A DNA stretch of 64,000 nt from an uncultured Nitrospirota bacterium (GCA_964570625.1 CAZMYW010000006.1:420-64419), one strand, 5' to 3'. Counted from the stretch's first letter, positions 4,443 to 33,489 are shown. Program-made: numbers and translations. The notes: generated by a model not told the origin, from the letters alone.

Positions 4443-6442
4443 TGAGCCGGATGAACATTCGAGACCTCCGCGTCCGCTCCGTCCTCCTGTGCACCGTCGT
4501 CGCACTGGTGGCGTCGTTGGTCGGTTACGCGACCACGGCCGGCGTCGTCATGTGTGTGATGCTGACCGCCGGTTTGATCGTGATCGGGATTGAGTGGCTG
4601 CTCACCGGACGGATCCGGAGACTGGCCGACGCGGTCGAGCGCTTGTGCAACGACACCGGTCCTGCCACCGGCGGCGCAGGGCCCAAGCGCGACGACCTCG
4701 ATCGGATCAACGAAGCCGCGCACCACTTGGCGACCGTCCTTCGCCAACAACTGGCCGACCAGCACGTCATGGAAACGATTCCCGACGCGCTGTATATCCT
4801 CGACCTCGACGGACGTCTGATCCGATGGAATCATCTGGCGGAGTCCGCGACCGGACGAACACCTGATGAACTGAATCGGATACCGTTTGTCGAACTGATC
4901 GTGTCCGAGGAACGCGAGATCGTCTTCGACGCGGTCCGTCGCGGGGTTGCCGACGGCACGTCGGAGATCGAGGCGCGGCTCCTGCGAAAGGACGGGACCT
5001 CGTTCCCGCTCCACTGGAGTTGCGCGAGCCTGAAGGACAGCCAGGGACACGCTCTCGGACTCGTGGGCATCGGCAGAGACATCACCGACCGCCGACGCGC
5101 CGAAGAGACGATCCGGCAACTCGCCTACTACGATTCGCTCACCACATTGCCCAATCGGGCCATGGTGCATGAGCGGCTCGTACAAGCCGTCCGATCCGGC
5201 GAGCGTCGCCAGACCCCGGTGGCCTTCCTGCTCATGGACCTGAACGACTTCAAGGACGTTAACAACACCCTCGGCCACCACCATGGCGACCTGGTGCTGC
5301 AGCAGATCGGCCCACGCCTTCGCGACATCCTCCGTCAATCGGATACGGTGGCTCGTCTGGGCGGAGACGAATTCGCCCTGGTGTTGCCCGACACCGACTT
5401 GGAGGGCGCGCAGCTCGTCGCGAAGAAAGCGCACCAGGTCCTGGAAACCCCCTTCAACGTCGACGGCTTGAGTATCGGGGTGGAGGCCAGCGTAGGCATC
5501 GCGTTGTTCCCGGATCATGGGACGAGCGCCTCCCTGATCATGCAGCGCGCCGACGTGGCCATGTACGCGGCCAAACGAAGCGGGGGCGGCTCCGCGGTCT
5601 ACTCGGCGGAGCGGGATCACTACAGCCCGAGACGTCTGGCGCTAATGGGAGAGCTGCGGTACGCCATCGAACACAACGAACTCGCGTTGTATTACCAACC
5701 AAAAATTCACATGCAGAGCCGGCGCGTCATCGGTGTGGAGGCGCTGGTGCGCTGGAAACACCCCCACCGAGGCATGATCCCGCCCGACGACTTCATCCCC
5801 TTGGCCGAGCGAAGCGGTTTGATCAGGCCGCTCACCCAGTGGGTGCTCTCCACCGCATTGGATCAAATTCGGCAGTGGGAGCAGGCCGGATTCCAGCTCA
5901 GCGTCGCCGTCAATCTCTCGGCCAGAAATCTGCTGGATGCGCAGCTCCCCGACCATCTGGAGGAACTGCTGCGCGGGACCGGCACGCGGCCCAATCGCCT
6001 CGAATTGGAGATCACCGAGAGCACCATCATGATCGATCCCGTCCGCGCGTTGGACATCTTGACCAGACTGCACGGCATGGGCGTCCCGCTGGCGATCGAC
6101 GATTTCGGAACCGGCTACTCCTCCCTGGGGTATCTCAAACGGCTTCCAGTGTCGGCCGTGAAGGTCGACAAGTCTTTCGTCAAGAATATGGAAGCCAATG
6201 ACAACGACGCGGTGATCGTGCGGTCGACCATCGAACTGGCGCACAACCTCGGCTTGCAGGTCATCGCCGAGGGGGTGGAGACCTCCTATCTCTGGGACCG
6301 TCTGGCCGGGTTGGGCTGCGACGCTGCGCAGGGGTACTACATCAGTCAACCGGTGCCGGCCGACGCACTCAGCCGGTGGTTCGTGGACTCGCCATGGGAG
6401 GTGGCGCTGGTGCCACCGGGATCCACGTCCGAGGCCGCGTGA
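4443..6442 (+). CDS. PAS-GGDEF-EAL protein, paralog of the upstream gene, with an intact GGDEF motif
   Basis: The motif ARLGGDEF is intact and the EAL signature is present (GVEALVRW, DDFGTGYSSLGYLK). The C-terminal 450 aa are very similar to the upstream paralog. The start was chosen at ATG 4443 (MSRMNIRDL) to avoid a 148-nt overlap with the upstream gene. Confidence 0.8.
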
Positions 6443-9091: not shown

Positions 9092-10786
9092 TTGATTGCC
9101 GCGCTGAACTCCCTTAGGATGCTGGCCTACGAAGGTTGGATGACTCACCCGTCACCGGTCTCTCACCCGGGAGGCTTGCACGACATGGCCAACAGCGCAA
9201 CCGTGGTTCCGCGCCTCGGAGACCTGTTATGCGCCCAGGGCGCACTCACCCGCGACGGTGTGGGACGGGGCCTCGACGAGCAACGCCAGCGGGGAGGCCT
9301 GTTGGGCGACCACCTTGTGTCGCTCAAGCTCCTCACCCCTCATGCGCTCTCGACCGCGCTGGCGCGTCAGGCCGACCTTCAACGCGCGGCATATGAAGAC
9401 CTAATTCCCGCGCTGGCCACTGAAGCGGCTCACGGCCGACCCCAGGACAGCGCCGCAGGCGCACCACCGTTAGTGCGTTTGGTCGACGCGCTGTTGACCT
9501 ACGGGGTAATCCGCCAGGCCAGCGACCTGCACGTGGAGCCGGAAGCCGACGCGAGCCTGGCGCGGTATCGCGTCCACGGCCTCCTGACGCGCGCCTTCAC
9601 CCTACCGCGCGCGCTCCACCCCGCGCTGGTGTCTCGACTCAAAATCCTCGCGTCATTGGACATCGCGGAGCGGCGGCTCCCCCAGGATGGCGCGGTCCGT
9701 GGTCGCTACGCGGGCCGGCCCGTGGACCTGCGCGTCGCGTCGCTCCCCAGCCAACACGGCGAGAAAATCGTGATTCGGATTCTGGATCACGCCCGCCAAC
9801 TGCTGAGCCTCGGAGCGCTCGGGTTATCGTCGCACGAAGCCGAAGCGGTCGGCGCGATCCTGACCCGTCGAAAAGGCATCATCCTGGTGACCGGACCCAC
9901 GGGAAGCGGGAAAACCACCACGCTGTATGCCATGCTCAACGCCATTCGAGACGGCACGAGCAATATCGTGACGGTGGAAGATCCAATCGAATATTCGATC
10001 GCCGGAGTCAACCAGGTGCAGGTCCACGCGGAAATCGGATTGACCTTCGCACGCGCGTTGCGGGCCATACTGCGGCAAGACCCCGACGTCATTCTCATCG
10101 GCGAGATCCGCGACGGCGAAACCGCCGAGATCGCGTATCGCGCCGCCATGACCGGGCATCTGGTGCTCTCGACCCTACACACCAACGACGCGGCGGCTAC
10201 CATCGCCCGCTTGACCGACTTGGGGGTGCCGCGTTATCTGGTGGCCGCACACACCGCGGGGATCTTGGCGCAGCGGTTGGTCCGGAAGCTGTGCCAGGTC
10301 TGTCGAGCGCAAGGTCGACCTTCGCCCAGCCACGCGTTGCACCTCGGGCTCTCCGCTGCAGCGGTCGACGACGATCAGGCGTGGGGGCTCCCCACCGGAT
10401 GCGCCGCGTGCCACGGCACCGGATACCAGGGACGCATGAGCCTGTTCGAGTCCCTGCTGCCGTCTCGCGATCTCCGCGAACAGATCGGCGGCGGCGCATC
10501 CGAAGACGCCCTGCGCCTGACCGCGCTCCGATCCGGCATGGTCTCGCTGCTCGCCGCAGGACTGGCCAAGGCACGCGAGGGACTGACGTCGCTGGAAGAA
10601 TTGGGACGCGTGTTGGAGCCGGACGAAGGCGGACCCGCGCTCTGCGACGCGTGCGGCAAGATCCGGCCGGGCCCATCCCCGTTTTGCCCGTTCTGCGGCG
10701 CGCGGGCAGCCGGCGCGTGCACCGGGTGCGGTCGGGGGATAGCGCCGTCGTGGTCCCACTGCGCGTCCTGCGGCACGGCCCGCTGA
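9092..10786 (+). CDS. GspE/PilB-family secretion ATPase with an MshEN-like N-terminal domain and a C-terminal Cys-rich zinc-ribbon extension
   Basis: Walker A is GPTGSGKTTTLYAML and the T2SSE core is present (His box HLVLSTLHTN). An N-terminal tandem RLGDLL...Q / LLGDHLV...ALARQ region resembles the 24-residue MshEN c-di-GMP-binding motifs. The C-terminus carries CDACG...CPFCG...CTGCG...CASCG. The likely start is ATG 9185. Confidence 0.8.
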   Translation: MIAALNSLRMLAYEGWMTHPSPVSHPGGLHDMANSATVVPRLGDLLCAQGALTRDGVGRGLDEQRQRGGLLGDHLVSLKLLTPHALSTALARQADLQRAAYEDLIPALATEAAHGRPQDSAAGAPPLVRLVDALLTYGVIRQASDLHVEPEADASLARYRVHGLLTRAFTLPRALHPALVSRLKILASLDIAERRLPQDGAVRGRYAGRPVDLRVASLPSQHGEKIVIRILDHARQLLSLGALGLSSHEAEAVGAILTRRKGIILVTGPTGSGKTTTLYAMLNAIRDGTSNIVTVEDPIEYSIAGVNQVQVHAEIGLTFARALRAILRQDPDVILIGEIRDGETAEIAYRAAMTGHLVLSTLHTNDAAATIARLTDLGVPRYLVAAHTAGILAQRLVRKLCQVCRAQGRPSPSHALHLGLSAAAVDDDQAWGLPTGCAACHGTGYQGRMSLFESLLPSRDLREQIGGGASEDALRLTALRSGMVSLLAAGLAKAREGLTSLEELGRVLEPDEGGPALCDACGKIRPGPSPFCPFCGARAAGACTGCGRGIAPSWSHCASCGTAR

Positions 10787-10897
10787 AAAAGTCCATCGAC
10801 AGCGTTGCCGCTGCGCATCCGGTGCTCACGTACACATCCAGTACGCTGCGCTCCGGTGCTCGCGGCGCCTTGTCGCTGGAGCTTTTTGAGCGGGCCG

Positions 10898-10931
10898 CAT
10901 TCCCTCAACGAGGGAACTCGTTGAGGGAATG
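10898..10931. terminator. Perfect 15-bp stem / GGAA-loop hairpin between the convergent gspE-like and thiL genes
   Basis: CATTCCCTCAACGAG-GGAA-CTCGTTGAGGGAATG was read directly from the sequence. There is no clear U-tract on either strand. Confidence 0.4.
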
Positions 10932-10938
10932 GATGGCC

Positions 10939-11964
10939 CTAACCAACGTCTCGGAAATGTTCGTATCCTACACGCGGGAGTGAACGCCGTCGTCCTGTCG
11001 CATCGATCACGGCGAGGCCGCGGCGTGCGGGTGTCACACGGCCGATAACTGTCAGCATGGCGTCGTCAGCCACCGCGCGACGGGCCCGATTCAAGCGCCG
11101 AGGCGATACGGTGGCTAGCAGCTCGAAATCCTCGCCCCCGCGCAACGCGTATTCGATTGGGTCGCGCCGGACTGCCGCGGCGTAGGCCCGCAACGCGGGC
11201 GAGAGCGGTAACGCGCCCAGATTAATCTCCACCCCCACCTTGCTCGCTTCGCAGAGCCGACGCACGTCGGCAGCCAGGCCGTCGGACAGGTCGATCGCCG
11301 CGGTGGCCAGGCGGTGCTGCGCGAGACGGGCGCCGACGTTCAGTCTGGGGGTGGGACGCTGGTGACGGTCGATCAACCAACGCGCGTGTGATCGTGAAAG
11401 GCCACGCGGCAATCGTGTGCCGCGACCCAATAAACCCAATCCCGCGACCGAATCACCCAGCGTGCCGGTCACACACAAGAGATCCCCTGGCCGCGCTCCG
11501 GAGCGCATCAGTGCGCGCCCACGTACTACCTCGCCGATGACCGTCACCGCGATCGACCAGCAGGGCGCGGCCGATACGTCTCCCCCTGCTAACACGACAC
11601 CATAGCGCCTGGCGGCACGCCCCAATCCCCGATAAAGCCCCTCCGCATCGCGAACCCGCGCCTGGGTGGGCAGCGACAACGCCACAAAAAATGCGACCGG
11701 CCGTCCTCCCATAGCCGCAATGTCGCTGAGGTTCGCGACCAGCGCTTTTTCCCCCAACCGATCAAACGGCCAAACACGCAGGTCGAAGTCGATTCCTTCC
11801 ACCAACACGTCGGTCGTGACAAGCAACTCGGTCCCGGCCCGCTGCCGGACAACTGCCGCGTCGTCACCAACGCCGACGCGCAAGCGAGGCAAAGTGGTCG
11901 GACAGAGCCTGGCGAGCCGGGCAATCAGCCCAAACTCCCCCAATCGCCCTAGATTATTTTCCAC
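10939..11964 (-). CDS. thiL: Thiamine-monophosphate kinase
   Basis: AIR-synthase-related N- and C-domains are present (GDDAAVV, LLVTTDVLVEGIDFD, ANLSDIAAMGGRP). The start is set at GTG 11964 (VENNLGRLGEF). The longer ORF extending to 12096 would read through the intergenic repeat element. Confidence 0.8.
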   Translation of the reverse strand: MENNLGRLGEFGLIARLARLCPTTLPRLRVGVGDDAAVVRQRAGTELLVTTDVLVEGIDFDLRVWPFDRLGEKALVANLSDIAAMGGRPVAFFVALSLPTQARVRDAEGLYRGLGRAARRYGVVLAGGDVSAAPCWSIAVTVIGEVVRGRALMRSGARPGDLLCVTGTLGDSVAGLGLLGRGTRLPRGLSRSHARWLIDRHQRPTPRLNVGARLAQHRLATAAIDLSDGLAADVRRLCEASKVGVEINLGALPLSPALRAYAAAVRRDPIEYALRGGEDFELLATVSPRRLNRARRAVADDAMLTVIGRVTPARRGLAVIDATGRRRSLPRVGYEHFRDVG

Positions 11965-12001
11965 AGATGTTTTTCCCCAGAGCGCACGCTTCGGCGCTCT
12001 G

Positions 12002-12126
12002 GGAGCCTGTTCAGGAGCGCGCCAGATGCCAGGCGCCGCGAGCACCCGCACCGCAGCGTACTGGGTCGTACGTGAGGAGCGGATGCGCAGCGGCAACGCC
12101 GCAGATGGCCGCTCATGGACAGGCTC
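12002..12126 (+). repeat. Copy 1 of a ~125-bp structured intergenic repeat
   Basis: Near-identical to 19566-19689. It has imperfect terminal inverted repeats (GAGCCTGTTCAGGAGCG ... CGCTCATGGACAGGCTC) and internal hairpins (CGTAC-TGGGT-CGTACG, GCGGC-AAC-GCCGC). It abuts the lon stop codon. Confidence 0.7.
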
Positions 12127-14594
12127 TACGCGTTGATGGGAAGGGAGGAGCGGTTTTGGCGCGGCGATGGCCGCGCCCGCGGCTTCACCATGCGAAACCC
12201 CCGCAACGCAACGGGCAACACGTCGTCCATCGTTTCGGCGAACACAAGCTGTAACCCCTGTTTGACGTGTTTGGGCACGTCTTCGAGGTCTTTCTCGTTG
12301 CGCTTGGGGATGATGACGGTTTTCATGCCCGCCCGCTTGGCAGCCAACAACTTTTCCTTCAGACCCCCGATCGGCAACACCCGTCCGCGCAGCGTCACCT
12401 CACCCGTCATGGCGACCTCATGCCGCACCGGGGTATCGGTGAACACCGAGGCCAAGGCCGTGGCCATCGTAATGCCCGCCGAAGGACCGTCCTTGGGAGT
12501 CGCGCCTGCCGGCACGTGGATGTGGACGTCGAGTTTGCCGAACACGTCGGGCTTGACGCCGATCTCGTGTTGCCGGGACTTGATGTAGCTGAGCGCGGCC
12601 TGCGCCGACTCTTTCATCACGTCGCCCAGGTGGCCGGTCAGGGTGAGCACACCCTTGCCCTTCATGGTGGTGGCCTCGATGTAGATGATGTCGCCGCCTG
12701 ATTCGGTCCACGCCAGGCCGGTGGCCACGCCAAGCTCGTCGTGCTCCTGCTCCGCCTCCGGCACGTGTTTGGGGATGCCGAGATAGGCTTGGAGGTTCTT
12801 GGGCGTGATGATGTACTGCTTGACCTTCCCTTCGGCGATCTTCCGGGCCACCTTGCGGAACACGTTGGCGATCTCGCGCTCCAGGTTCCGCACGCCCGCC
12901 TCGCGCGTGTACTGCGTGATGATTATCCGCAGCGCGGACTCGGTGAGTTCCGCGTGTTTCTCCGAAATGCCGTGCTCCTTGAGCTGCCGCGGAATCAGAT
13001 AGTTCTTGGCGATCCCGACCTTCTCCTCCTCGGTGTACCCCGAGATATCGATCACTTCCATCCGGTCGCGCAGCGGGCCCGGGATAGGATCGAGCAGATT
13101 GGCGGTGGTGATGAACATGACGTTCGAGAGGTCGAACGGCACGCCCAGGTAATGATCGGTGAACGCGTGGTTCTGCTCCGGATCCAGCACTTCCAGCAGG
13201 GCCGCCGCGGGATCGCCGCGGAAGTCCATACCGATCTTGTCCACCTCATCCAGCATGAACACCGGGTTATTGGACCCGCCCTGCTTAATGCCCAGGACGA
13301 TCCGGCCCGGCAACGAACCCACGTACGTACGCCGGTGGCCCCGGATCTCGGCCTCGTCGCGTACCCCGCCCAGCGACATCCGCACGAACTCCCGTCCCAG
13401 CGCCCGGGCGATCGACTTGCCCAACGACGTCTTGCCCACGCCGGGCGGGCCGAGGAAACACAGGATCGGCCCTTTCATCTTTTCTTTTAACTTGCGCACC
13501 GCCAGGAACTCGAGGATCCGCTCCTTGACCTTCTCCAGATCGTAGTGGTCGTCGTTGAGCACCTTTTCCGCGGCCGGGATGTCCAGATTGTCCTTGGTCG
13601 TTTTGCTCCACGGGATCTCGACCATCCATTCCAAATACGTGCGGATCGTGGCGGCCTCGGCCGAGTCCGGGTGCATTTTCTCCAGGCGCTTGAGCTGCTT
13701 GTCGGACTCTTTGAACACCTTCTCGGGCATCTTGGACTGTTTGATGCGCTTGCGAAACTCGTTGATCTCCTCAGCGCGTTCGTCGACGTCGCCCAGTTCC
13801 TTTTGGATGGCTTTGAGCTGCTCGCGCAGGAAATACTCCCGCTGGCTGCGGTCCATCTCCCCCTTGGCTTCGGCCTGGATTTTCTGCTGCATCGACAGCA
13901 GTTCGATCTCCTTGTTCAGGATCTCGTTGACGCGCCGCAGCCGCGCGACCGGGTCCAGGAGTTCCAGGACCTCTTGCGCCAGGTCCACCTTCAGCCCCAG
14001 ATTGGAGGCGATCATGTCGGCCAGGCGGCCGGGTTCATCGAGATTTTCGATGACCACCATGATCTCGGGCAACATCAGCTTGCCGAACCCGATGATCTTT
14101 TCGAGCTGCTCCTTGACGGTTCGCATCAGCGCCTCGATCTCGAGGCTGACCTCCGGCGCCGCGGCATCGGGCAGTTTTTCGGTCTGGACCACGTAGAACG
14201 GCGTCGTCTGGACGTACTCGAGCACGCGCACGCGAGCCATCGCCTGCACCAAAATCTTGATGCGGCCGTCGGGCAACTTGAGCATTCGCATGATCATGCC
14301 CACGGTGCCGACCGAATACAGGTCCTTCGCTTGGGGGTTCTCCACGTCCAGTGCGCGCTGGGCCACCAACAGCACCAAGCGGTTGCCGGCGAGCGCCTCG
14401 TCGATGGCCTTGATCGACATCTCGCGGCCCACGAACAGCGGCAGCACCATGTGCGGAAACACCACCAGATCCCGCACCGGGAGCATCGGCAACTGGCTGG
14501 GGATTTCGACCTGCTGGGTGTCTTGCTCGACCGTCTCTGTCACGCGTTCGGTTCCCCCTTTCCTGGTTTCACCCTTCTTGCACCGGAATTTCAA
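12126..14594 (-). CDS. lon: ATP-dependent Lon protease
   Basis: Lon N-domain ([10 protein letters not shown]), AAA+ Walker A ([15 protein letters not shown]) and the C-terminal Ser-Lys protease domain ([13 protein letters not shown]) are present. The start could instead be Met at 14486 (MLPVRD), which would remove the overlap with hsp20. Confidence 0.9.
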
Positions 14595-14979
14595 TCGCTT
14601 TCTGCCGTCGGTCCGGAATCTTGGGAAACGTCACGGTAAGCACGCCGCGTTCGTATCGCGCCATCGCCGCGTGGGGATTGATCGGAATCGGCAGATGCAC
14701 CACGCGGTGAAACGCCGTGGAATTGCGCTCGACCCGCAAGTAACACCCCTTCCCCGCGTCGCTGCGCGTCCGACGGCCCTCGATCGTGAGGTTGTTCTGC
14801 GAGACCACGATCTTCAACTCGTGAAGCACGATGCCCGGCAGGTCGACGGTCACCACCAACCCATCCGGCACCTCATAGAGATCGAGCAGCGGTGTACTGG
14901 GCGCTTCCTGCGCGGACAGGAGCGGCGCCACCAACAACCGCTCGCTCGTCATCCGCACCGTAGTTTCCTGTTTGGCCAT
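14569..14979 (-). CDS. Hsp20/alpha-crystallin family small heat-shock protein
   Basis: The alpha-crystallin domain pattern is present ([16 protein letters not shown] ... GVLTVTFPK). It lies directly upstream of lon in the same orientation. Confidence 0.85.
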
Positions 14980-15056
14980 GCCGAGCCTCCTCCACGTCCC
15001 CGGGCTGAAACACGCCAGGGCTGGCGGAGTGTCCCTGGTGCGGGACGCCCGCCGGA

Positions 15057-15932
15057 TTATTTCAACCGCAGTTGCTCCAGATACCGCCGGAACGCCGGAC
15101 CCAACTCGGGGTTCTTCAGTCCGAATTCGACCGTGGCTTTGAGAAACCCCAGCTTATCGCCGGCGTCGTGCCGGTGGCCGTCGAGGATCTTTCCGTACAG
15201 CCGGCCTTGTCGCGCCAACACACGTAAGGCGTCCGTCAACTGGATCTCGCCGTTTCGGCCCGGTTCCGTATGCTCCAGGATCGAGAAAATATCGGGCGTA
15301 AGCACGTAGCGGCCGATCACGGCAAGCGTGGACGGCGCCTGCTCGGGGGCGGGTTTCTCGACCAGATCTTCGATCTGAAACACGCCCGGTTTGATTTCAC
15401 GCCCCTGGATGATGCCGTATTGGCTCACTTCCTCCCGCGAGACCGGCTGCAGGCCGATCGCCGCCACGCCCACCTCCTGATGCATCGCGATCAGTTGCTG
15501 GATGGCGGGCTGAGGATGGTCGATGATATCGTCGCCCAACAGCACCGCGAACGTCTCGTTGCCCACCCCCGGGCCGGCCTGCAGCACGGCGTGCCCCAGC
15601 CCTTTGGCCTCCCGCTGGCGCACGTAGATAAACCGCGCCAGGCCCGTGATGTGCTGGATCTCCTGCAACTGTTTGTGTTTACCCTGGCCCCGCAGCGTGG
15701 ATTCCAGCTCGAACGCCACGTCGAAATGGTCCTCGATCGCGCGTTTGCCGCGGCCGGTGACAATGATGATGTCCTGAATTCCCGCGGCGACCGCCTCTTC
15801 GACCACGTACTGGATGAGCGGCTTGTCCACCAGCGCCAACATCTCCTTGGGAGACGCCTTGGTGGCGGGGAGAAATCGCGTGCCGAGCCCCGCGGCCGGA
15901 ATCACGGCTTTGACGATCGGGGAAGCGTTCAT
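15057..15932 (-). CDS. galU: UTP--glucose-1-phosphate uridylyltransferase
   Basis: The N-terminus KAVIPAAGLGTRFLPATKASPKEML is the GalU signature. Confidence 0.9.
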   Translation of the reverse strand: MNASPIVKAVIPAAGLGTRFLPATKASPKEMLALVDKPLIQYVVEEAVAAGIQDIIIVTGRGKRAIEDHFDVAFELESTLRGQGKHKQLQEIQHITGLARFIYVRQREAKGLGHAVLQAGPGVGNETFAVLLGDDIIDHPQPAIQQLIAMHQEVGVAAIGLQPVSREEVSQYGIIQGREIKPGVFQIEDLVEKPAPEQAPSTLAVIGRYVLTPDIFSILEHTEPGRNGEIQLTDALRVLARQGRLYGKILDGHRHDAGDKLGFLKATVEFGLKNPELGPAFRRYLEQLRLK

Positions 15933-15985
15933 TCGGCGTGATTCTAGGGGTGCATCGGATGAAAGTCAACGAACAGAACAAACGA

Positions 15986-16771
15986 TCAAAATCCCGTCGA
16001 GACTCCCACCATCCCATACCACGCGACACGGTCATCGGGCCCAAACACGTCGGACCCGAGCCCGGCGTCCGCCACGATCCGGTGGCTGATCTGGTGGCGG
16101 ATCCCCATCTCGATGCCCGTGGTGTTCGACTCGGAGGTGTCCGATGATTGCTGCGTGAAGACATCGACGATCAGGGTCTCGCGAAAGCGCATCGGATATC
16201 CCAACGGATAACTCGCGCCGACCGCGGCGTTGTACCGGCCCCGGCGCTCTCCCGCCGCCGCGGAGGCCGCGACGAGATAGTCCGCGTTGACGTGGGTCCG
16301 CATCCGGCCGAACGTGCGGGTCACGATCAACCCGCCGGAGGCGTCCACGCCGGTGTCCCGAAACCCGCTCGTCGCCTCGGCTTCGGCCCGCACCGCGAAC
16401 GCGGGCCATTGCAGCGACTCGCTGTTGAAGTTGTAGAGCACACCCAGCGCCGCCGCGGTCTCGCGATCAGTCGCGGCGACCGACGACCCTTCGAATGCCG
16501 CGTCTCCGCTGATCTCGATCTGGGCGTTATAGCCGATGCCGTACAACACCCCGATTCCGAGACCGTACCCGAAACCATCCCCGCGCCGATCGTGGACCGT
16601 GGCGCCGACGTCCACGCCGATTTCGCCTTTGGGGATCGGATAGGCATCGTCGATCCGCAGCGGCCGCCCCGCTTCCAGGTTGTCGTGATCCAGCGCCAGC
16701 ACCGGCGCGGTCCCCAGCGCCCACGCAGCGCCCCACGCCGCCCATGCCGCCACCCGGACGTCAGTGCGCAT
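15986..16771 (-). CDS. Outer-membrane beta-barrel protein (putative transport-related OMP)
   Basis: The call rests on a signal peptide, alternating amphipathic beta-strand pattern and a C-terminal aromatic residue (...VGVSTGF). The start was taken at Met 16771 (MRTDVRVAAWAAW). Confidence 0.5.
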   Translation of the reverse strand: MRTDVRVAAWAAWGAAWALGTAPVLALDHDNLEAGRPLRIDDAYPIPKGEIGVDVGATVHDRRGDGFGYGLGIGVLYGIGYNAQIEISGDAAFEGSSVAATDRETAAALGVLYNFNSESLQWPAFAVRAEAEATSGFRDTGVDASGGLIVTRTFGRMRTHVNADYLVAASAAAGERRGRYNAAVGASYPLGYPMRFRETLIVDVFTQQSSDTSESNTTGIEMGIRHQISHRIVADAGLGSDVFGPDDRVAWYGMVGVSTGF

Positions 16772-17714
16772 GCGGGGTTTTCGGCGACCGGACGATGAAC
16801 GGGTTCCCGGCATCCGCGCTCGCCAGGTAATACGTCTCCATCAGTCGATAGATTTCGCTGCGCTTGGCTTCCCAGGCGGGCAACGTCTCGCTGGCCAACA
16901 CGTCGCTGACATTGTCGTGCAGCATGTGGAGGTTGTCGAAGATATTCGCGATCTCGGGATGCTGATCCGCGAACGCCGGGCTGAGTTCCCCAGTGAGCGG
17001 CATGAACGTCCACTCGACCGGCGGACGGTCCAGATACCCGCGATAGGTCGCCAAGATCGGTTGCAGACGCTCCCGCTGCCCGGCGTGGTCGGCCCCGGAG
17101 ATCAACGGATCGTACGCCGCGCCCTGCAGATAGTGGTAGGCCCAGATCGTGGCGTTGAACAGCGGAAACCGTTGTCGAAACGCCCGGGAATACGGGAACT
17201 GGTCCAACCGTTGGTGGTCGAGCCGCTGCGCGGTGACCGCGTACGGGCTTGCCTGGTAATACGCCAGCGCCCGGTGAATCGCGGGCGCCTTGTCCGTCAC
17301 CACCTGCGACGCGTAGATGTCGTACGTGGCGCGATGCAGGGCGTGCGCCTCATCGAACATGTTCTGCGCGCGCCACGCCAGACGGATATACGTGGGCGCG
17401 ATCGCCTCTTCGTTGGGGGGCAGCGCGGGGCGCGACGCGATAAACGCCAGGGTTTGCCGCCGCGCCCGTTCTTCGACCGCGGGCACGTCGTTCCCTCCCG
17501 TGCGCAACAACGTCTCGTACAGGTGCGAGTGGCCGAAGTCCACGCCGTTGAACGCGACGTCCAACTCCGGAATGCCCTGGTGCAGGGCGAGGTTCCAGGG
17601 ACCCCGGCCGTGAAATCGTTTGTCGCGAGGCTCCCACTGGGCCGACGCCGGGCCCGGATTCGCCACCACCAGCGCGATGAGGGCCGCGGTCGCCGTCAGA
17701 TATCGCACGAACAT
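16761..17714 (-). CDS. Hypothetical secreted protein
   Basis: A signal peptide (MFVRYLTATAALIALVVANPGPASA) begins at ATG 17714. No family was recognised. Confidence 0.5.
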   Translation of the reverse strand: MFVRYLTATAALIALVVANPGPASAQWEPRDKRFHGRGPWNLALHQGIPELDVAFNGVDFGHSHLYETLLRTGGNDVPAVEERARRQTLAFIASRPALPPNEEAIAPTYIRLAWRAQNMFDEAHALHRATYDIYASQVVTDKAPAIHRALAYYQASPYAVTAQRLDHQRLDQFPYSRAFRQRFPLFNATIWAYHYLQGAAYDPLISGADHAGQRERLQPILATYRGYLDRPPVEWTFMPLTGELSPAFADQHPEIANIFDNLHMLHDNVSDVLASETLPAWEAKRSEIYRLMETYYLASADAGNPFIVRSPKTPHAH

Positions 17715-17793
17715 ACCGCCTCCTCGACCAGCGCAGGGCGCAAGACGTGACGCGTGAGGAACAACCGATAGAAACAACCAGAGGTGAAGGCGG

Positions 17794-18459
17794 TCAAGCA
17801 CGCGGCTGTTGCGGACGCCCCCGCGGGCCAACGACGCGCGGCCGCCTGGATCCGGCGGAACCACCGGATGCCAGCAGTTCTTCGTGGATCCGAGCCACCA
17901 AGCCGCGGATCGCGGTTTTGGGACGTCGGCCGTCGATGACGTAGTCCGCCACCCGCCGTTTGGCGGCCATCGACCACTGGCTCTTGATCCGCGCCAAGGC
18001 CTCGGCACGCGACAGGCCGTCGCGCGCGGCCAAACGGGCCAGTTGCGTACGCTGATCCGCGCTCACCACCACCACCGCGTCCATACGGTGATACGCGCCG
18101 CTCTCGATCAACAGTGCCGCGTCGAACACCACCACCGCATCGGCATCGCGGGCCGAGACCTCGCGCGTCAGCCGGCGTTCGGCCGCAAACACGGACGGAT
18201 GGACGATGGCCTCGAGTTGCCGACGGCGACGCGGGTGCCCGAAGACCAGCGCGCCCAACTTCGCGCGGTCCACCACGCCGCCGGGCGCGACGTCACGGCC
18301 GAATGCGCGCGCCACCGCGCGGGCCCCGGCCGAGCGCGGCGCGAGCGCGGCGCGAGCGAGCCGATCCGCGTCGATCACATACGCTCCCAGGTCGCGAAAC
18401 ATCGCCGCGACCGTGCTTTTGCCGCAGGCGATGCCGCCGGTCAGGCCGACTTTGATCAT
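17794..18459 (-). CDS. coaE: Dephospho-CoA kinase
   Basis: MIKVGLTGGIACGKSTVAAMFRDLGAYVIDADRLAR carries the P-loop and matches the CoaE N-terminus. Confidence 0.85.
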   Translation of the reverse strand: MIKVGLTGGIACGKSTVAAMFRDLGAYVIDADRLARAALAPRSAGARAVARAFGRDVAPGGVVDRAKLGALVFGHPRRRRQLEAIVHPSVFAAERRLTREVSARDADAVVVFDAALLIESGAYHRMDAVVVVSADQRTQLARLAARDGLSRAEALARIKSQWSMAAKRRVADYVIDGRRPKTAIRGLVARIHEELLASGGSAGSRRPRVVGPRGRPQQPRA

Positions 18460-18566
18460 GGAGGCCGCAGTGTAGCACGGATGCGAGAACCCTGGCCGCC
18501 GTTGATCCCGACGTAAGGCCCGGCGTACAATCCCGCACCGCGCATGACCGACCCCCGCTCCATCCC

Positions 18567-19544
18567 GTGACCCCGCGCCGCCGACGCAGCCGACCATCCC
18601 ATCGCTTCGGCCGCACGATCGCGGGGACCGTGTTCGCGATCGGCGCCATCGCGGCCGGGTACGGCGCCTACGTGTACTTCACGCTCCCGGACGTCGCTCC
18701 GCTCAAAACCAAGAACCCCACCACCACCGCGTTTATGGCGCTGCGGGAGCGGGAGTACAAGGAACGCGACGGCCGCGCGCCGCGTAAACACCAGCAATGG
18801 GTGCCGTTCTCTCGCGTGTCCCAGCACCTGGTCGACGCGGTGTTGCTGGCCGAGGACGCGGGGTTCTACTCCCACAACGGGGTGGACTATCACGAGTTAT
18901 GGGAATCCATGAAGATCAACTGGCGCACCAAAAAAATCCGGCGGGGCGCCAGCACGATCACCCAACAGCTCGCGAAAAATCTCTACCTCTCGTCGGAACG
19001 AACCCTGACCAGAAAATTTCGCGAGCTCCTGATCACCAGACGCCTCGAACAGGATCTGAGCAAACGTCGCATTTTGGAACTGTATCTCAACGTAGTGGAG
19101 TGGGGCCCGCACCTCTACGGCGTGGAGCAGGCCGCGCGCACCTACTTCGGCGTGTCGGCCCGGAATCTCACGCCCGCGCAGTCCGCCACACTCGCGGGCA
19201 TGCTCATCAATCCCATCCGGCACACCCCGCTCGCGCCCTCGTCTCGGCTCGCGCGCCGCAAGCGCATCATTCTGGATCGCATGGTGCGATACCAGAAAAT
19301 CACCCAAGAGGAATACCGCATCGCACTCGGCCTGACCCCACCCGAACCCGACCAAGAGCCAATCCCCGTCGTCGAACCCACACCCGTGCCCGAACCAGCC
19401 GACGACGGCCTAGCCGAAGACGAACCCACTCCCGAACCGCCCATCACTCCAGTCCCCCCCATGGAACTGACCGACCCCCCACCCGACCCCGCCCCAGCAC
19501 CCACTCTCGATTCACCCCCGACCGAGAATCCGGGCGGCACTTAG
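18567..19544 (+). CDS. mtgA: Monofunctional biosynthetic peptidoglycan transglycosylase (GT51) with a Pro-rich C-terminal tail
   Basis: GT51 motifs are present (EDAGFYSHNGVD, RGASTITQQLAKNLYL, RKFRELLITRRLE). The C-terminal 70 aa are a low-complexity Pro/Glu-rich region. Confidence 0.85.
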   Translation: MTPRRRRSRPSHRFGRTIAGTVFAIGAIAAGYGAYVYFTLPDVAPLKTKNPTTTAFMALREREYKERDGRAPRKHQQWVPFSRVSQHLVDAVLLAEDAGFYSHNGVDYHELWESMKINWRTKKIRRGASTITQQLAKNLYLSSERTLTRKFRELLITRRLEQDLSKRRILELYLNVVEWGPHLYGVEQAARTYFGVSARNLTPAQSATLAGMLINPIRHTPLAPSSRLARRKRIILDRMVRYQKITQEEYRIALGLTPPEPDQEPIPVVEPTPVPEPADDGLAEDEPTPEPPITPVPPMELTDPPPDPAPAPTLDSPPTENPGGT

Positions 19545-19565
19545 CACTCCCGACTCGTCAGAGTC

Positions 19566-19689
19566 GGAGCCTGTTCAGGAGCGCGCCATTCGCAAGGCGC
19601 CGCGAGAACCGGACCGCAGCGTACTGGGTCGTACGTGAGGACCGAAAGCGCAGCGGCAACGCCGCAGATGGCCGCTCATGGACAGGCTC
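19566..19689 (+). repeat. Copy 2 of the ~125-bp structured intergenic repeat
   Basis: Aligns with 12002-12126 over its full length with a few substitutions. A 7-bp hairpin (CCGACTC...GAGTCGG) precedes it. Confidence 0.7.
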
Positions 19690-19903
19690 CTAGTGCCTGT
19701 GCTAGGATCGCGCCACTTGGGAGGCGCTATGCTCCCCCAACGCTCGATCCGTCACCCACTCATCCCTGCACAACCTGCAGCCACCACCCTGCGCGCGCGG
19801 CGCCGCGCCTCACCCCGTATCGACCCGAGACGATGCGGGGCCTCGATCAATCTCCCCGGACCGCACCCGCGGCCCGAGGCCTGCTCGGAGGGGAGGATGC
19901 CGT

Positions 19904-20203
19904 ATGGGGATGCGGCTCTATATCGGCAATCTGTCGTTCGCGGCGTCTGACGCCGATCTGCGGGAGTTGTTCGCTCAAGTCGGTGAGGTGCAATCCGCCA
20001 AGGTCATCACCGACGTGTATACCGGTCGATCGCGCGGGTTCGGATTCGTGGAAATGGCCACCCGGGATGAAGGGCAACAGGCCATCGAGCAGTTCAACGG
20101 CAAGCCGCTGAAAGGTCGCCCCATTATCGTGAACGAAGCGCGTCCGCCGGCGCGGCGCCACGGCAACGATTCCAGCGCGCCAGGCCCCTCGCCCAGCACC
20201 TGA
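19904..20203 (+). CDS. RRM-type RNA-binding protein
   Basis: RNP-2 (LYIGNLSF) and RNP-1 (RGFGFVEM) motifs are present. Confidence 0.85.
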   Translation: MGMRLYIGNLSFAASDADLRELFAQVGEVQSAKVITDVYTGRSRGFGFVEMATRDEGQQAIEQFNGKPLKGRPIIVNEARPPARRHGNDSSAPGPSPST

Positions 20204-20207
20204 CCCG

Positions 20208-21950
20208 TTGGCGCCCTCCACGCAACCGACGCCCGACCGCTCCGACGCTTCCGTCCTGCATTCGGCCCAGCGCCTGTCTCCCGGACGGTTTCCCGAAACC
20301 CTGACCCGGCATCTCATCGAACTCCAGCGCGGCGGATTCCTCGCGCGGTTGCGCGATCGCGCGACTGATTTGTGGAACCCCGACCCCGCGCACCAGGCGG
20401 TGGCGGCCAATCGGCTGGGCTGGCTCGACGTGCTGCCGTTGATCAACACCCACGCGGCGCACCTGACCGCGTGGGCCCGCGACGCGCGCGGCCGGTTCGA
20501 CGCGTTCGCCTTGTTGGGCATGGGCGGATCCAGCCTGGCACCCGACGTCATCGCCCGCGTGGCGGCCTCGCCGCAAGACGCGGCGCGATTCGCCATGCTG
20601 GACTCCACGGATCCGGACGCGATCGCCGCGCTGGCGAAGCGGCTCGATGCCGCCAAGACCCTCCACATCGTCTCGTCAAAATCCGGCGGCACCATCGAGA
20701 CGCGCTCACACGCCGAGTTTTTCTGGGCACGCGCGGCCACACGTCCGGGGCAGGGGTTCGCCGCGATCACGGACCCGGGCTCGCCCCTGGCGCAGCTCGC
20801 GGCCGCGCGCACGTTCGAACACGTGTTCCTCAACGCCCCGGACATCGGCGGCCGGTACGCCGCGCTCTCCCTGGTGGGGCTGGTCCCCGCCGCGCTGTTG
20901 GGGCTGGACGTCACCGCGATCGCCGAGCGCACGGCCGCCATGGTGGACTCCTGCGCGCCCCAGGCGCCGACATACGACAACCCCGGGCTGGTCTTGGGCG
21001 CACTCATGGCCGTGTCCGCGCTCAACGGCGCAAACAAATTAACCCTGTTGACCTCGCCCTCGCTCCTTCCGTTTGCCGCGTGGGCCGAGCAACTGGTGGC
21101 GGAAAGCACGGGCAAAGACGGCAAAGGAGTGATCCCGGTGGTGGGCGAGCCGTTGGATCGGGTGGAGTTCGGAGCCGACCGCTGCGTGGTGGCGCTCAGG
21201 TTGAAAGACGAGGCCAGCCCGGCGCTCGACGAGATCCTCCCCGTGCTCCGCAACAGCGGCACGCCGCTGGTGGAGATCGTGCTGCCGGATCGGATGGCGG
21301 TGTTCGGCGAGTTCTACAAATGGGAGATCGCCACCGTGGTCGCGGCCGCACTACTCGGGGTGGATCCGTTCGACGAACCCAACGTCAAAGAGAGCAAGGA
21401 CATGACCGCCTCCATTCTCAACCGCGTGGAGCAAACCAAGTCTTTCGGCATCCCCCCGCCCGCAGTGGACACCGGTCACCTCGCGCTCTGGGGCGCTCCA
21501 TCACCCCCCCACCCCTCGATCGAAGGCGCCTTGCGCGCGTTCCTGGCCCCGGTCAAACCACCCATGTACCTGAGCCTGTTGGCGTACCTGAACCCGACCC
21601 CCCAAGTCGAAGCCGCCATCACGCAAATCCGCCGGGCCTTGGGTCCCACGCTGGGAGTGCCGACGCTCTTCGGCTGGGGTCCACGTTACCTCCACTCCAT
21701 CGGCCAACTCTACAAAGGCGGCCCACCCAGCGGCGCGTTCATCATCCTCACCTCAGACCACGCCACCGACCTGCCGATCCCCGAAGCCGCCTACACGTTC
21801 GAGCAATTAGAAATGGCCCAAGCCCTAGGCGACTTCGAAGCCCTGAACAAACACACCCGCCCCGTCCTTCGTATCCATCTCAAAGGCGATCTAACGACCG
21901 CACTCGCCGAGCTGGAACGCGCCGTCACCGCCAGCCTGACTGACCGTTAG
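20208..21950 (+). CDS. pgi: Glucose-6-phosphate isomerase (short, tal-pgi-type PGI domain)
   Basis: Sugar-isomerase (SIS) motifs are present (LLGMGGSSLAPDV, VSSKSGGTIET), together with the N-terminal LW..D...NRLGWL region typical of this PGI subfamily. Confidence 0.7.
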   Translation: MAPSTQPTPDRSDASVLHSAQRLSPGRFPETLTRHLIELQRGGFLARLRDRATDLWNPDPAHQAVAANRLGWLDVLPLINTHAAHLTAWARDARGRFDAFALLGMGGSSLAPDVIARVAASPQDAARFAMLDSTDPDAIAALAKRLDAAKTLHIVSSKSGGTIETRSHAEFFWARAATRPGQGFAAITDPGSPLAQLAAARTFEHVFLNAPDIGGRYAALSLVGLVPAALLGLDVTAIAERTAAMVDSCAPQAPTYDNPGLVLGALMAVSALNGANKLTLLTSPSLLPFAAWAEQLVAESTGKDGKGVIPVVGEPLDRVEFGADRCVVALRLKDEASPALDEILPVLRNSGTPLVEIVLPDRMAVFGEFYKWEIATVVAAALLGVDPFDEPNVKESKDMTASILNRVEQTKSFGIPPPAVDTGHLALWGAPSPPHPSIEGALRAFLAPVKPPMYLSLLAYLNPTPQVEAAITQIRRALGPTLGVPTLFGWGPRYLHSIGQLYKGGPPSGAFIILTSDHATDLPIPEAAYTFEQLEMAQALGDFEALNKHTRPVLRIHLKGDLTTALAELERAVTASLTDR

Positions 21951-21987
21951 TTGATCTAAGGAGGTTTCGGCCGCTTTTATGCGGCCG

Positions 21988-22110
21988 CTGGCCGCCGAGA
22001 AGTGGGTAGCTGCCAGGCGGAGCAAGAAGCCGCACCGCAGCGTACTGGGTCGTACGTGAGGATGCGGCTTCGCCGCGACAACGCCGCAGATGCCCGTTTC
22101 TCGGCGGCCA
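21988..22110 (+). repeat. Copy 3 (diverged) of the structured intergenic repeat
   Basis: It shares the core GCACCGCAGCGTACTGGGTCGTACGTGAGGA ... CAACGCCGCAGATG with copies 1 and 2. Here it is flanked by a perfect 14-bp inverted repeat (CTGGCCGCCGAGAA / TTCTCGGCGGCCAG). Confidence 0.6.
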
Positions 22111-22129
22111 GATTGACACCGGGAAGGGA

Positions 22130-22879
22130 ATGATGCTACCAACACCCGTGCCCCGCTCATCAGCCATACCAGCTCCCGCTGAAAAAGAACGCACCGTCCA
22201 GCGCATGTTCTCCGCCATCGCGCGCTGGTACGATCTCAACAACACGGTCTTGTCGCTCGGCCTCCACCACGCGTGGAAGCGTCAAGCCGTGGCGCTGACG
22301 CAGGCCAAGCCCGGCAACACCGTGCTGGATCTGTGCGCGGGCACGTGCGACCTGGCGATTTTGCTCGGGGATACGGTCCGGCCGAGCGGCCGCGTCACGG
22401 CGTGTGATCTGAACGCGGAGATGCTGGAGATCGGCCGGCGCAAAGTTGCCAAGCGCGGGTACGATGATCGCATCACCTGCGTGTTGGGCAACGCGGAGTC
22501 GCTGCAATTCGAGAGCAATACGTTCGACGCCTTGACCGTGGCCTTCGGCCTGCGCAACGTCACACACCTGGACCGGGCCCTCGCGGAAATGTATCGGGTG
22601 CTACGACCCGGCGGCCGCGCCGTGTGCCTAGAGTTCTCCCAGCCCACCAACGCGGGGTTTCGCAAGGCGTATGACTTCTACTCGTTCACGCTCCTGCCCA
22701 AGATCGGTACCTGGATCGCTCGCGACCGCACCGGTGTGTACCAGTATTTGCCGGACTCGATCCGGAACTTCCCGTCCCAGGAGCGTTTTGCCGCCATGTG
22801 GCGCGAGACCGGCTTTCACGGCGTGCGGTACGTGAACCGCTCCGGCGGCATCGTGGCTATGCACATCGGCGTGAAATGA
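22130..22879 (+). CDS. ubiE: Demethylmenaquinone/ubiquinone C-methyltransferase
   Basis: RTVQRMFSAIARWYDLNNTVLSLGLHHAWKR and the SAM-binding VLDLCAGTCDLA are present. Confidence 0.85.
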   Translation: MMLPTPVPRSSAIPAPAEKERTVQRMFSAIARWYDLNNTVLSLGLHHAWKRQAVALTQAKPGNTVLDLCAGTCDLAILLGDTVRPSGRVTACDLNAEMLEIGRRKVAKRGYDDRITCVLGNAESLQFESNTFDALTVAFGLRNVTHLDRALAEMYRVLRPGGRAVCLEFSQPTNAGFRKAYDFYSFTLLPKIGTWIARDRTGVYQYLPDSIRNFPSQERFAAMWRETGFHGVRYVNRSGGIVAMHIGVK

Positions 22880-27010: not shown

Positions 27011-28045
27011 ATGAGTAAGATGAAGGTAGTCCAGGTCACCAAACCCAAGGGTCCCTTTGAACTCGTGGAACGCGAGATCCCCGAGCCCGGACCCGGACAC
27101 GTGCGGATCAAGGTCCAGGCGTGCGGCATCTGCCACAGCGACATGTACACCAAAGACGGCCTCTGGCCCGGTATTCAATTCCCGCGAATTCCGGGACACG
27201 AAGTCGCCGGGGTGATCGATGCGTTAGGCCAGAGCGTCAACGGATGGACCGTTGGCCAGCGCGTGGGCGTGGGTTGGCACGGCGGCCACTGCGGGTACTG
27301 CGATTCGTGCCGCCGCGGCGAATTCGTGACCTGCCAAATCGAAAACACCGTCACCGGCATCTCCCGCGACGGCGGCTACGCCGAATACATGATCGCCCAC
27401 GAAGGAACCCTGGCCAAAATCCCCGACGCCCTCACTCCTGAAGAAGCCGCGCCCTTGATGTGCGCCGGCGTTACCACCTACAACTCCCTGCGCAACAGCG
27501 GCGCGAGGGCCGGCGATACCGTGGCCGTGCTGGGCTTAGGCGGTCTCGGCCACCTGGGCGTGCAGTACGCGAACAACATGGGCATGAGAACCATTGCCCT
27601 GGCGCGGGGCAAAGATAAAGAACCCTTGGCCAAGAAACTCGGCGCGCATCATTATATAGACAGCCAGGCCACAGACCCCGCGGCAGAACTGATGAAGCTG
27701 GGCGGAGCCAGCATCATCCTGTCCACGGTCACGGACGCCAAAGCCGTGAACGCGGTCATGGGTGGATTGGGCCTGAACGGAAAACTCGTCATCGTAGGCG
27801 CCCCGCACGAACCCCTCTCCGTGTCCCCCGGTTTCCTCATCGGAGGACGCCGATCCATTGCGGGCTGGCCCTCCGGCTCGTCCATCGATTCGCAGGACAC
27901 GCTGGCGTTCAGCGCCTTGACTGGCGTGCGGTCAATGAACGAGGTCTTCCCTCTGGAGCGCGCATCAGAGGCCTACGATCACATGATGAGCGGCAAGGCA
28001 CGGTTTCGAGTCGTTCTGACAACCGGACCACAGGGTCGGTCGTGA
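27011..28045 (+). CDS. Zinc-dependent alcohol dehydrogenase (MDR family)
   Basis: GHEVAGVIDALG, the structural-zinc Cys cluster CGYCDSCRRGEFVTC, and the GLGGLGHLGVQYA Rossmann motif are present. Confidence 0.85.
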   Translation: MSKMKVVQVTKPKGPFELVEREIPEPGPGHVRIKVQACGICHSDMYTKDGLWPGIQFPRIPGHEVAGVIDALGQSVNGWTVGQRVGVGWHGGHCGYCDSCRRGEFVTCQIENTVTGISRDGGYAEYMIAHEGTLAKIPDALTPEEAAPLMCAGVTTYNSLRNSGARAGDTVAVLGLGGLGHLGVQYANNMGMRTIALARGKDKEPLAKKLGAHHYIDSQATDPAAELMKLGGASIILSTVTDAKAVNAVMGGLGLNGKLVIVGAPHEPLSVSPGFLIGGRRSIAGWPSGSSIDSQDTLAFSALTGVRSMNEVFPLERASEAYDHMMSGKARFRVVLTTGPQGRS

Positions 28046-28184
28046 AGCGGCACGAAATCAAGATTCAAATCCTGACCCTGCCGGTAAACCCAGTGGCTCG
28101 GCCTGTCGGCGACGAGAGCGCCTTCGGGACACGCTCCCCCGAGGGATCATCCCGAAAAAGCGGTTGACTCGAAGACTCCTCCCT

Positions 28185-28309
28185 TAACCCGGCTTATTCA
28201 TGAACCTTCTACTGTACCCGCGGATATTTCCTGCGCCTTGCGGCGCTAAGCATATTTCGCTGGCGTCTTCGCGGGTTCGTTACAAACGTTCATGAATAAG
28301 CCGGGTTAA
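28185..28309. repeat. Perfect 22-bp inverted repeat (TTAACCCGGCTTATTCATGAAC) with an 81-bp spacer, ending 5 nt before the start codon of the BcsZ-BcsA fusion gene
   Basis: The arms lie at 28185-28206 and 28288-28309 and were read directly from the sequence. Confidence 0.6.
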
Positions 28310-33350: not shown

Positions 33351-33489
33351 TCACCGACTCGTGATCCGGGAGGCGTCAAGGCCAGAATCTTGACATCCCG
33401 ATCAGGATGCGCGCAGAGTAACGCCCATGGCTCGACCGCTCGGAATCGACTATCCGGGCGCCGTCGACCACGTGAGCGGTGTCCTGATG

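Follow-up and report, generated by a model that had tools for sequence, protein, structure and literature searches.

The closest described counterparts of the repeat analyzed here, a hairpin-forming element present in four copies within a 64,000-nt stretch of DNA from an uncultured Nitrospirota bacterium (GCA_964570625.1, CAZMYW010000006.1:420-64419; the whole stretch is referred to below as the window), are bacterial miniature inverted-repeat transposable elements (MITEs) and related palindromes. The ERIC/IRU element is an imperfect extragenic palindrome of ~127 bp that is transcribed, has TA termini and a target site duplication, forms a long stem-loop and has orientation-dependent effects on neighboring mRNA (PMC2229807). 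The Nitrospirota element is also palindromic and TA-ended, with optional internal modules at fixed positions, but it is GC-rich, has a near-invariant apex, three interchangeable outer stems and a partner in the IS1182 family of insertion sequences (IS), belongs to Nitrospirota rather than Enterobacteria, and shows no evident sequence relationship to ERIC on informal comparison. Longer ERIC variants, which Wilson and Sharp are said to have described in 2006, reportedly arose from internal insertions at fixed sites. Correia/NEMIS elements of Neisseria have terminal inverted repeats and a TA duplication, occur in forms of 107 and 155 bp that differ by an internal block, insert near genes and are cotranscribed as hairpins (PMC2229807). 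They resemble the Nitrospirota element in a −35-like hexamer of the terminal repeat that can pair with flanking DNA (here TGGACA, in one predicted promoter), whereas the sequences are unrelated, Correia elements being AT-rich with 24–26-bp repeats and no known transposase and the Nitrospirota element being paired and covarying throughout. The ends of the RUP MITE of Streptococcus pneumoniae match those of the resident IS630-Spn1, and insertion occurs at TA (PMC2229807). The same logic underlies the match between the ends of the Nitrospirota element and those of IS1182-family IS, except that the families differ (IS630/Tc1-mariner vs. IS1182) and that the partner IS comes here from metagenomes and not from the same genomes. 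REPINs, finally, are hairpin-forming, high-copy and extragenic, and compensatory changes between their arms are common (PMC3116915); they differ in their end-located conserved blocks, the lack of a TA duplication and a single-copy RAYT gene, none of which held or was shown here.

The repeats of the window very probably form part of a high-copy family of nonautonomous transposable elements (MITEs) of a GC-rich Nitrospirota clade. The family is newly characterized, real and ordinary in kind, with IS1182-type ends, and it corresponds to the published description of bacterial MITEs (PMC2229807) in being small and noncoding, in its terminal repeats and TA, in its dispersed and polymorphic distribution, and in having a stem-loop and an IS partner. 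The hairpin is 121–125 nt long and the complete unit about 150 nt. Such a unit consists of TA, the left repeat GGAGCCTGTCCGAGTAT, a spacer of ~10 nt or a small hairpin, an irregular hairpin of 124 nt and a second TA. The left terminal repeat recurs in direct orientation as the 5′ strand of the outer stem, whose 3′ strand is the right terminal repeat (...GGACAGGCTCC).

Family Size, Hosts, and Subfamilies

A 20-nt piece of the conserved core was compared with one genome per species and matched at least 92 stretches. Among the matches listed, nearly all come from six metagenome-assembled genomes (MAGs) of Nitrospirota/Nitrospiria, and the core was not found in viral contigs. A covariance model (R1), for which 66 members of the family were aligned, detects 131 copies across 757 kb of the listed loci, distributed over six or more Nitrospirota MAGs, and about 30 of these copies lack the exact core. 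The copies are interspersed with and surrounded by ordinary housekeeping genes; for example, four copies lie inside 8 kb of one lysine-biosynthesis operon (argH, a radical-SAM gene, lysA, dapF, dapA). An initial annotation of the window had proposed either a dispersed MITE/REP-like repeat or a family of small RNAs (sRNAs). The former proposal is borne out by the copy number and by the terminal repeats, the TA/CTAG flanks, the filled and empty sites and the ends in common with IS1182-family IS that are described below; the further copies are abundant and do not represent a duplicated gene fragment. The sole core match outside the Nitrospirota among the matches listed is a 3.2-kb contig labeled Minisyncoccia (L034, JBASCT010000005.1), which is probably a binning error and not a true host.

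Three types of outer stem, A (GGAGCCTGTTCAGG), B (CTGGCCGCCGAGAAG), and C (GCAGGCTGCTCAAAAAG, with ends GCAGGCTGCTGAAAAAG), all carry one common interior. Two optional blocks occupy fixed sites within it: one of ~50 nt, which lies between CAGATGC and GCAAGG and includes a CCCC-UUCG-GGGG hairpin, and one of ~75 nt after GTGAGG. A 30-nt insert (TCTAGCGTGACGGACGAATGCTGCTTCCCG), which may be a tiny nested element, stands at differing positions within copies of L019, L063 (about 3540-3570), L065 (two inserts), and L084. Tandem and partial copies were also observed. At L009 (1057-1330), left halves ending at GTGAGG each lead into a small hairpin and, behind it, a full copy, and at L091 (about 1027-1045) the right end is duplicated (...TGGACAGGCTCC TA TGGACAGGCTCC TA), which suggests recurrent breakpoints or footprints.

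Hairpin Structure and Covariation

The consensus fold of the family, to which RNAalifold was also applied, is an irregular rod. Its base is formed by a 12-bp outer stem and a 9-bp second stem, followed by a helix of CAGAUG opposite CAGAUG with tandem G.A at the center, by UGC/GCA, by an AA bulge and by GGCG/CGCC. Beside a CAA bulge stands either GA opposite GA or CC opposite GG, two versions that covary. A variable 8-bp stem and CC/GG then lead to the invariant apical hairpin GCGUAC-UGGGUC-GUACGU, which is closed by a G.U pair; the apical core of ~28 nt is close to invariant and the most conserved part of the element. In the alignment of 66 copies, 87.6% of the cells are paired, compared with 29–44% when the partners are slid, and 25 pairs vary on both sides, values that none of 500 shuffles attained. 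The G.U closing pair is present in 65 of the 66 copies, and the AA and CAA bulges as well as the tandem G.A mismatches are kept across subfamilies. In 90–94 out of 105 copies the plus strand is the better-folding one, the difference being −6.4 kcal/mol under RNA parameters and −3.2 kcal/mol under DNA parameters. The count of G.U versus A.C (141 vs. 101) shows a weak asymmetry in a strand test that is confounded by alignment register, and the loop classes GNRA, GNA, and UNCG of the accessory hairpins are represented by small counts.

The element is thus as highly structured as initially described: copies 1–3 of the window have minimum free energies (MFE) of −69 to −82 kcal/mol (z −5.5 to −8.4), a covariance model could be built and the helices covary. 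A comparison with Rfam 15 gave no match at gathering scores across the whole window, and four weak matches at E ≤ 10 around copy 1, none of them relevant to the element. Of the two internal hairpins in the initial annotation, the apical one (GCGTAC-TGGGTC-GTACGT) is retained, whereas GCGGC-AAC-GCCGC is not local and pairs with the 5′ arm in the supported fold. A “clover” fold, in which the arms form hairpins of their own (GCGCC..GGCGC and GCGGC-AAC-GCCGC), was rejected, as the covariation backs the long rod. A small reverse-strand open reading frame (ORF) of the A-type copies (TAGGAGCCTGTCCATG, a Shine–Dalgarno sequence plus ATG) was rejected as well, being absent from the B and C types. Cores with a CCGG inner stem (e.g., window 19631-19646) read GUACGUGAGGACCG(A/G)A, which resembles the sarcin–ricin loop of 23S rRNA (AGUACGAGAGGACCGGA), probably by chance; the likeness of GUACGUGAGGACCGGA to this loop was set aside, as the matching tail lies in the variable stem and the structural context differs.

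Termini and the IS1182-Family Partner

The hairpin is bounded by GGAGCCTGT(T/C)C...GGACAGGCTCC, and at each of its ends stand the first 11 nt of a terminal repeat of 17 nt, GGAGCCTGTCCGAGTAT. In many copies of types A and C, the upstream sequence is CTA followed by GGAGCCTGTCCGAGTATTnGGGTGTT, with the hairpin directly after, and the upstream left terminal repeat is the reverse complement of the right end. The 17-nt IS repeat (≤4 mismatches) was identified upstream of the hairpin in 21 of 112 copies, most of them at 27 nt, against a random expectation of 0.2%. Among those 21 copies, TA borders the left end on the outside in 16, and C+TA is present at the right end in 19. In the family as a whole, where TA makes up 1.5% of dinucleotides, C+TA directly follows the right end in 42 of 111 copies, with CTAG or CTAN in many, and the upstream TA positions peak 26–35 nt ahead of the hairpin. 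The boundaries that the initial annotation gave are therefore those of the hairpin, and the mobile unit reaches about 27 nt or more farther 5′.

A metagenome scan with the left end YTAGGAGCCTGTCYGAGTAT returned at least 120 loci. These include seven elements of ~1.46–1.65 kb that are bounded by GGAGCCTGTCCGAGTA(T/A), seventeen copies of a ~270-nt element (257–274 nt) bounded by the same inverted repeat, and other elements of 30–194 nt with the same ends, the shortest consisting of two fused repeats. Flanks of the form cTA...TAg were present in all seven IS copies and in most of the smaller elements inspected. All three of the ~1.5-kb elements that were scanned encode a protein of 434–469 amino acids with DUF772, DDE_Tnp_1, and DDE_Tnp_1_6 domains, and the two transposases checked against the NCBIfam IS1182-family model score 355–361 bits (cutoff 270). 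Relatives of the transposase (40–90% identity) occur in about 20 of the 120 loci listed. The 17-nt terminal repeat and the cTA...TAg flanks are common to the IS and the Nitrospirota element, which differ in that the IS is ~1.5 kb long, encodes a DDE transposase and lacks the related hairpin motif (GGATGCAAGGCG...CAACGCCGCAGAYG), whereas the window element codes for nothing. A related shorter hairpin (GCGGATGCAAGGCG...TGGGT...CAACGCCGCAGACGCC) is found in the ~270-nt MITEs and other metagenomic elements (26–55 bits with R1).

Since the terminal repeat and the cTA/TAg flanks are those of IS1182-family IS, we infer mobilization in trans by an IS1182-type DDE transposase. The element would insert at the TA within a CTAG-like target and the TA would be duplicated. 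The terminal G at each end rebuilds a TAG stop, so that insertions in tight operons are tolerated. A transposase is presumably encoded in the host genomes, and the element may affect its host, for example through an mRNA hairpin that influences how stable a transcript is or how it is processed, an effect described for ERIC and Correia elements. The genes between copy pairs or clusters that were scanned for transposases are all housekeeping genes. Orphan matches to the terminal repeat in the Nitrospirota loci are chance matches in coding sequence or rearranged copies, with no IS among them, and a match at window position 61046 is ordinary sequence. One metagenomic IS1182-family element of full length (L180, 29-1573) has flanks that are reverse complements of each other (AGTAATACTA before and TAGTATTACT after the IS) and apparently entered a second palindromic mini-element at its central TA.

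Insertion Sites

Several sites are filled in one genome and empty in another. Two operon junctions that contain a copy in L083 (at 2455 and 586) are empty in L030, where each empty site has one TA that lies inside a TAA stop codon and beside the start of the next gene. At the filled sites, the upstream gene ends with TA plus the first G of the element, and the stop codon is rebuilt. The site of window copy 4 is empty in MAG040 (L038). A further site is filled in L047 (at 3814) and empty in L005, with intergenic DNA too diverged for clean junctions.

Where coding DNA is GC-rich, sites that contain TA are found mainly in stop codons and between genes. The frequency of CTAG is 0.35 per kb in the family loci, with 25 occurrences in the window, and the copies adjoin stop codons because the TA/CTAG target is rare and concentrated in the stops of a genome with 62–64% GC. 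Family-wide, 11 copies lie at convergent and 3 at divergent junctions, while between codirectional genes the element is antisense in 28 cases and sense in 10. In the antisense arrangement, exemplified by copy 1, the right end of the element directly borders the upstream stop. Orientations as mixed as these speak against a strand-specific RNA derived from the 3′ untranslated region (3′-UTR). No conserved promoter or terminator accompanies the element; a U-tract was not seen after the hairpins, and terminator-like matches in the two regions scanned (1 and 5) compare with 1.5 and 2.3 in shuffled sequence. With the mostly antisense placement and the lack of an Rfam match, the proposal of a 3′-UTR-derived sRNA family is not upheld.

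Copies in the Window

The window contains four copies in all, three on the plus strand and one inverted, with the following hairpins and accessory hairpins (scores in bits refer to covariance model R1):

10776..10897, minus strand: copy 4, C-type outer stem (CGGCCCGCTCAAAAAG...) with A-type inner part; 93.1 bits, E 1e-22
10898..10931, minus strand: accessory hairpin of copy 4, 15-bp stem, CATTCCCTCAACGAG TTCC CTCGTTGAGGGAATG; fold −25.5 kcal/mol
11976..12001, plus strand: accessory small hairpin of copy 1, CCCAGAGCGC..GCGCTCTGGG; fold −21.3 kcal/mol
12002..12126, plus strand: copy 1, A-type hairpin; 130.6 bits, E 9e-33; MFE −79.2 kcal/mol, z −6.1
19544..19690, plus strand: likely full unit of copy 2, judged from sequence and TA flanks, with a degenerate left end that includes a small hairpin (19550-19565) and the A-type hairpin
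19566..19690, plus strand: copy 2, A-type hairpin; 112.2 bits (19567-19689); MFE −69 kcal/mol, z −5.5
21968..21987, plus strand: accessory small hairpin of copy 3, CGGCCGC TTTTAT GCGGCCG; fold −15.4 kcal/mol
21988..22111, plus strand: copy 3, B-type outer stem (CTGGCCGCCGAGAAG...); 113.5 bits; MFE −81.7 kcal/mol, z −8.4

The three plus-strand copies lie where the initial annotation had placed them, with the imperfect terminal inverted repeats it described and an extra short hairpin directly 5′ of each. They are indeed co-oriented, but the inverted copy 4, which was also recovered by a repeat finder (inverted-repeat pairs I1-I3 and I10) and has an altered apical loop (TGGATGTG), had been overlooked. 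Copies 1 and 2, described as near-identical, are 92% identical. Copy 3 is 67–72% identical to either and, diverged as it is, fits its earlier description in sharing the 28-nt core CCGCAGCGTACTGGGTCGTACGTGAGGA, which is exact in copies 1–3 (0 matches in 100 shuffles), and in being enclosed by a perfect 14-bp inverted repeat (CTGGCCGCCGAGAA/TTCTCGGCGGCCAG); its outer stems are unlike those of copies 1 and 2 in sequence and retain the pairing. In copy 4, an outer stem of type C encloses an interior of type A, which means that the modules recombine. Clear TA flanks are present at both ends of copy 2 (TA 19542-43, within the TAG stop of a transglycosylase gene, and TA 19691-92) and at the right end only of copy 1. 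None of the four window copies has an intact left terminal repeat, and they are probably relics that are immobile or have been converted.

The initial annotation placed all three plus-strand copies immediately after stop codons. This applies to copies 2 and 3, which begin 22 nt past the TAG of the transglycosylase gene (18567..19544, plus strand) and 37 nt past the TAG of a PGI-like gene (20208..21950, plus strand), respectively. Copy 1 does end on a stop codon, the TAG of lon, but in antisense: it lies between lon (12126..14594) and thiL, two genes of the minus strand to which it is antisense, and C12126, the base with which it ends, is complementary to the G in the lon TAG stop. Copy 3 is located upstream of ubiE (22130..22879, plus strand) in the same orientation as the PGI-like gene and ubiE. 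Copy 4 separates the convergent genes for a T2SSE-type ATPase (9092..10786, plus strand) and thiL (minus strand); its accessory hairpin starts 7 nt past the thiL TAG stop (10939-10941), and the end of copy 4 supplies the last codons of the ATPase gene together with its TGA stop (10784-10786). As read from the alignment, the C-terminus of the ATPase is ...CGTAR* in the window and ...CGAARSS* in the MAG040 orthologue.

The copy at the lon/thiL junction can be compared between genomes. The window and MAG040 (L038) copies are 91% identical, with 71–83% identity in the flanking coding DNA, and are three paired substitutions apart. In SMAG_U8274, the copy next to lon is a member of another subfamily. 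Where the orthologous copies differ, they do so by variants often seen among paralogues, which makes conversion or reinsertion as likely as in situ compensation. The small hairpin of copy 1 (11976-12001) corresponds to about 6921-6946 in L038, with the stem kept through a compensatory A/T swap and a loop that is roughly the reverse complement (ACGCTTCG vs. GGAAGCGT), as if a mini-palindrome had flipped. At 19679-19708 (plus strand), the TGGACA of the right terminal repeat of copy 2 and the flanking TG-TAGGAT form a promoter-like site (−35 and extended −10, respectively), a predicted outward hybrid promoter of the Correia kind and the sole such site.

Alternative Explanations

Several observations weigh against the interpretation of the repeats as a MITE family mobilized by an IS1182-type transposase. 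A 2-bp TA duplication is not cleanly separable from a 4-bp CTAG duplication, as one locus (L130) favors TA and most flanks fit both; IS5, a relative, is reported to duplicate CTAG (PMC10379815). The B-type copies, including window copy 3, have neither TA flanks nor similarity to the IS repeat, and only about a fifth of all copies keep a recognizable left terminal repeat. The left extensions of copies 1 and 2 are unrelated despite the 92% identity of their hairpins; from their sequences, the unit that was copied or converted looks like the hairpin and not like the TA-to-TA unit. A transposase gene was not found in the window or in the 92 Nitrospirota loci. Finally, a DDE transposase needs ends and not a fully paired interior, and DDE cut-and-paste alone leaves the covarying interior, the conserved bulges and G.A mismatches and the near-invariant apical core unaccounted for.

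These features of the interior raise the possibility, which is tentative and rather unlikely, that the hairpin is a selected single-stranded module, either an RNA element at the junctions of housekeeping operons or folded DNA or RNA required for transposition. If so, a folded structure needed for transposition would be new for an IS1182-family DDE transposase, and an RNA element seeded by a MITE would control processing, stability, or coupling at operon junctions.

A stronger form of this idea holds that the hairpin is primarily a functional single-stranded RNA or DNA (a protein-binding or RNase-processing module, or an sRNA) that MITE ends spread or that acquired them secondarily, and its probability is lower again. 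Its conservation would then be accounted for by selection on that function. The strong covariation speaks for it. Template switching in quasi-palindromes can mimic covariation without function; this process would, however, tend to erase conserved asymmetries, yet the asymmetric bulges, the G.A mismatches, and the G.U closing pair are kept across subfamilies. The better folding of the plus strand also fits, although the copies are related and the strand asymmetry is mostly one inherited property, the skew of G.U versus A.C is weak, and the orientation is not fixed, the element being mostly antisense to the genes with respect to its better-folding strand (28 vs. 10). Further support comes from the C(UUCG)G hairpin of the optional module, from the recurrence of the related motif in different MITEs but not in the autonomous IS, and from the lon/thiL junction, where the window and MAG040 retain a copy and SMAG_U8274 retains one of another subfamily. 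Against this, the differences between orthologous copies point to conversion or reinsertion over in situ compensation, the sites are polymorphic between related genomes, and the element has no conserved promoter, terminator, or Rfam family.

It is very improbable that the element is REPIN-like and that a tyrosine transposase of the RAYT/HUH kind (IS200/IS605-type) moves it in the form of a folded single strand. The long two-arm hairpin with frequent compensatory changes is a feature of REPINs (PMC3116915), and the extragenic high copy number, the orientation bias and the better folding of one strand agree with such a mechanism. However, the TA flanks and the DDE-type IS1182 terminal repeat indicate another enzyme, conservation peaks apically and not at the two ends, and a GTAG or CGTC tag was not seen, the ends being GGAGCC.../...GGCTCC flanked by TA. 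In addition, no Y1/HUH gene was found between or beside the copies, in a sample of about 3% of the host genomes. Local evolution as terminators, attenuators, or duplicated gene fragments, which would match the gene-end position and the GC-rich hairpins, is refuted by copy number and distribution, with the same core at >130 unrelated loci in several genomes, and is further opposed by the missing U-tract, by terminator-like matches close to the shuffled numbers and by read-through ORFs that have no Pfam match in the element part.

Consequences for Annotation and Other Repeats

Identification as a MITE family has practical consequences, since the element yields false ORFs, inflated N-termini (thiL) and rewritten 3′ ends (the ATPase stop in copy 4) and marks operon junctions. 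The initial annotation was correct in that automated calling reads through copy 1 and inflates the N-terminus of thiL: the minus-strand ORF 10939..12096 runs through the copy, and the AIRS domain begins only at residue 77. The spurious peptide (TAAYWVVRE...) that it connected with this read-through comes instead from a separate plus-strand ORF (11666..12136). The ORFs that cross copies 1 and 2 are without a Pfam match in the element part, and masking with the covariance model would remove these artifacts. The family also ties a MITE to IS1182, shows how a TA/CTAG target steers insertions onto stop codons in a GC-rich genome and, with a hairpin “cargo” whose conservation exceeds that of the ends and which different MITEs have in common, offers a testable case of selection on the interior of a MITE.

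The window also contains other repeats. A palindrome at 28184-28309, separate from this family and AT-richer, has 25-nt arms (TTAACCCGGCTTATTCATGAACCTT / AACGTTCATGAATAAGCCGGGTTAA) that are 96% complementary and 76 nt apart, with no second copy in the window or the fetched loci. The segments 3187-4130 and 5331-6280 are about 72–84% identical in register at a spacing of 2144–2150 nt and, by their sequence, look like tandem paralogous genes. A direct repeat of 217 nt with 87% identity is located at 27829-28045 and 33477-33693, 5.6 kb apart.

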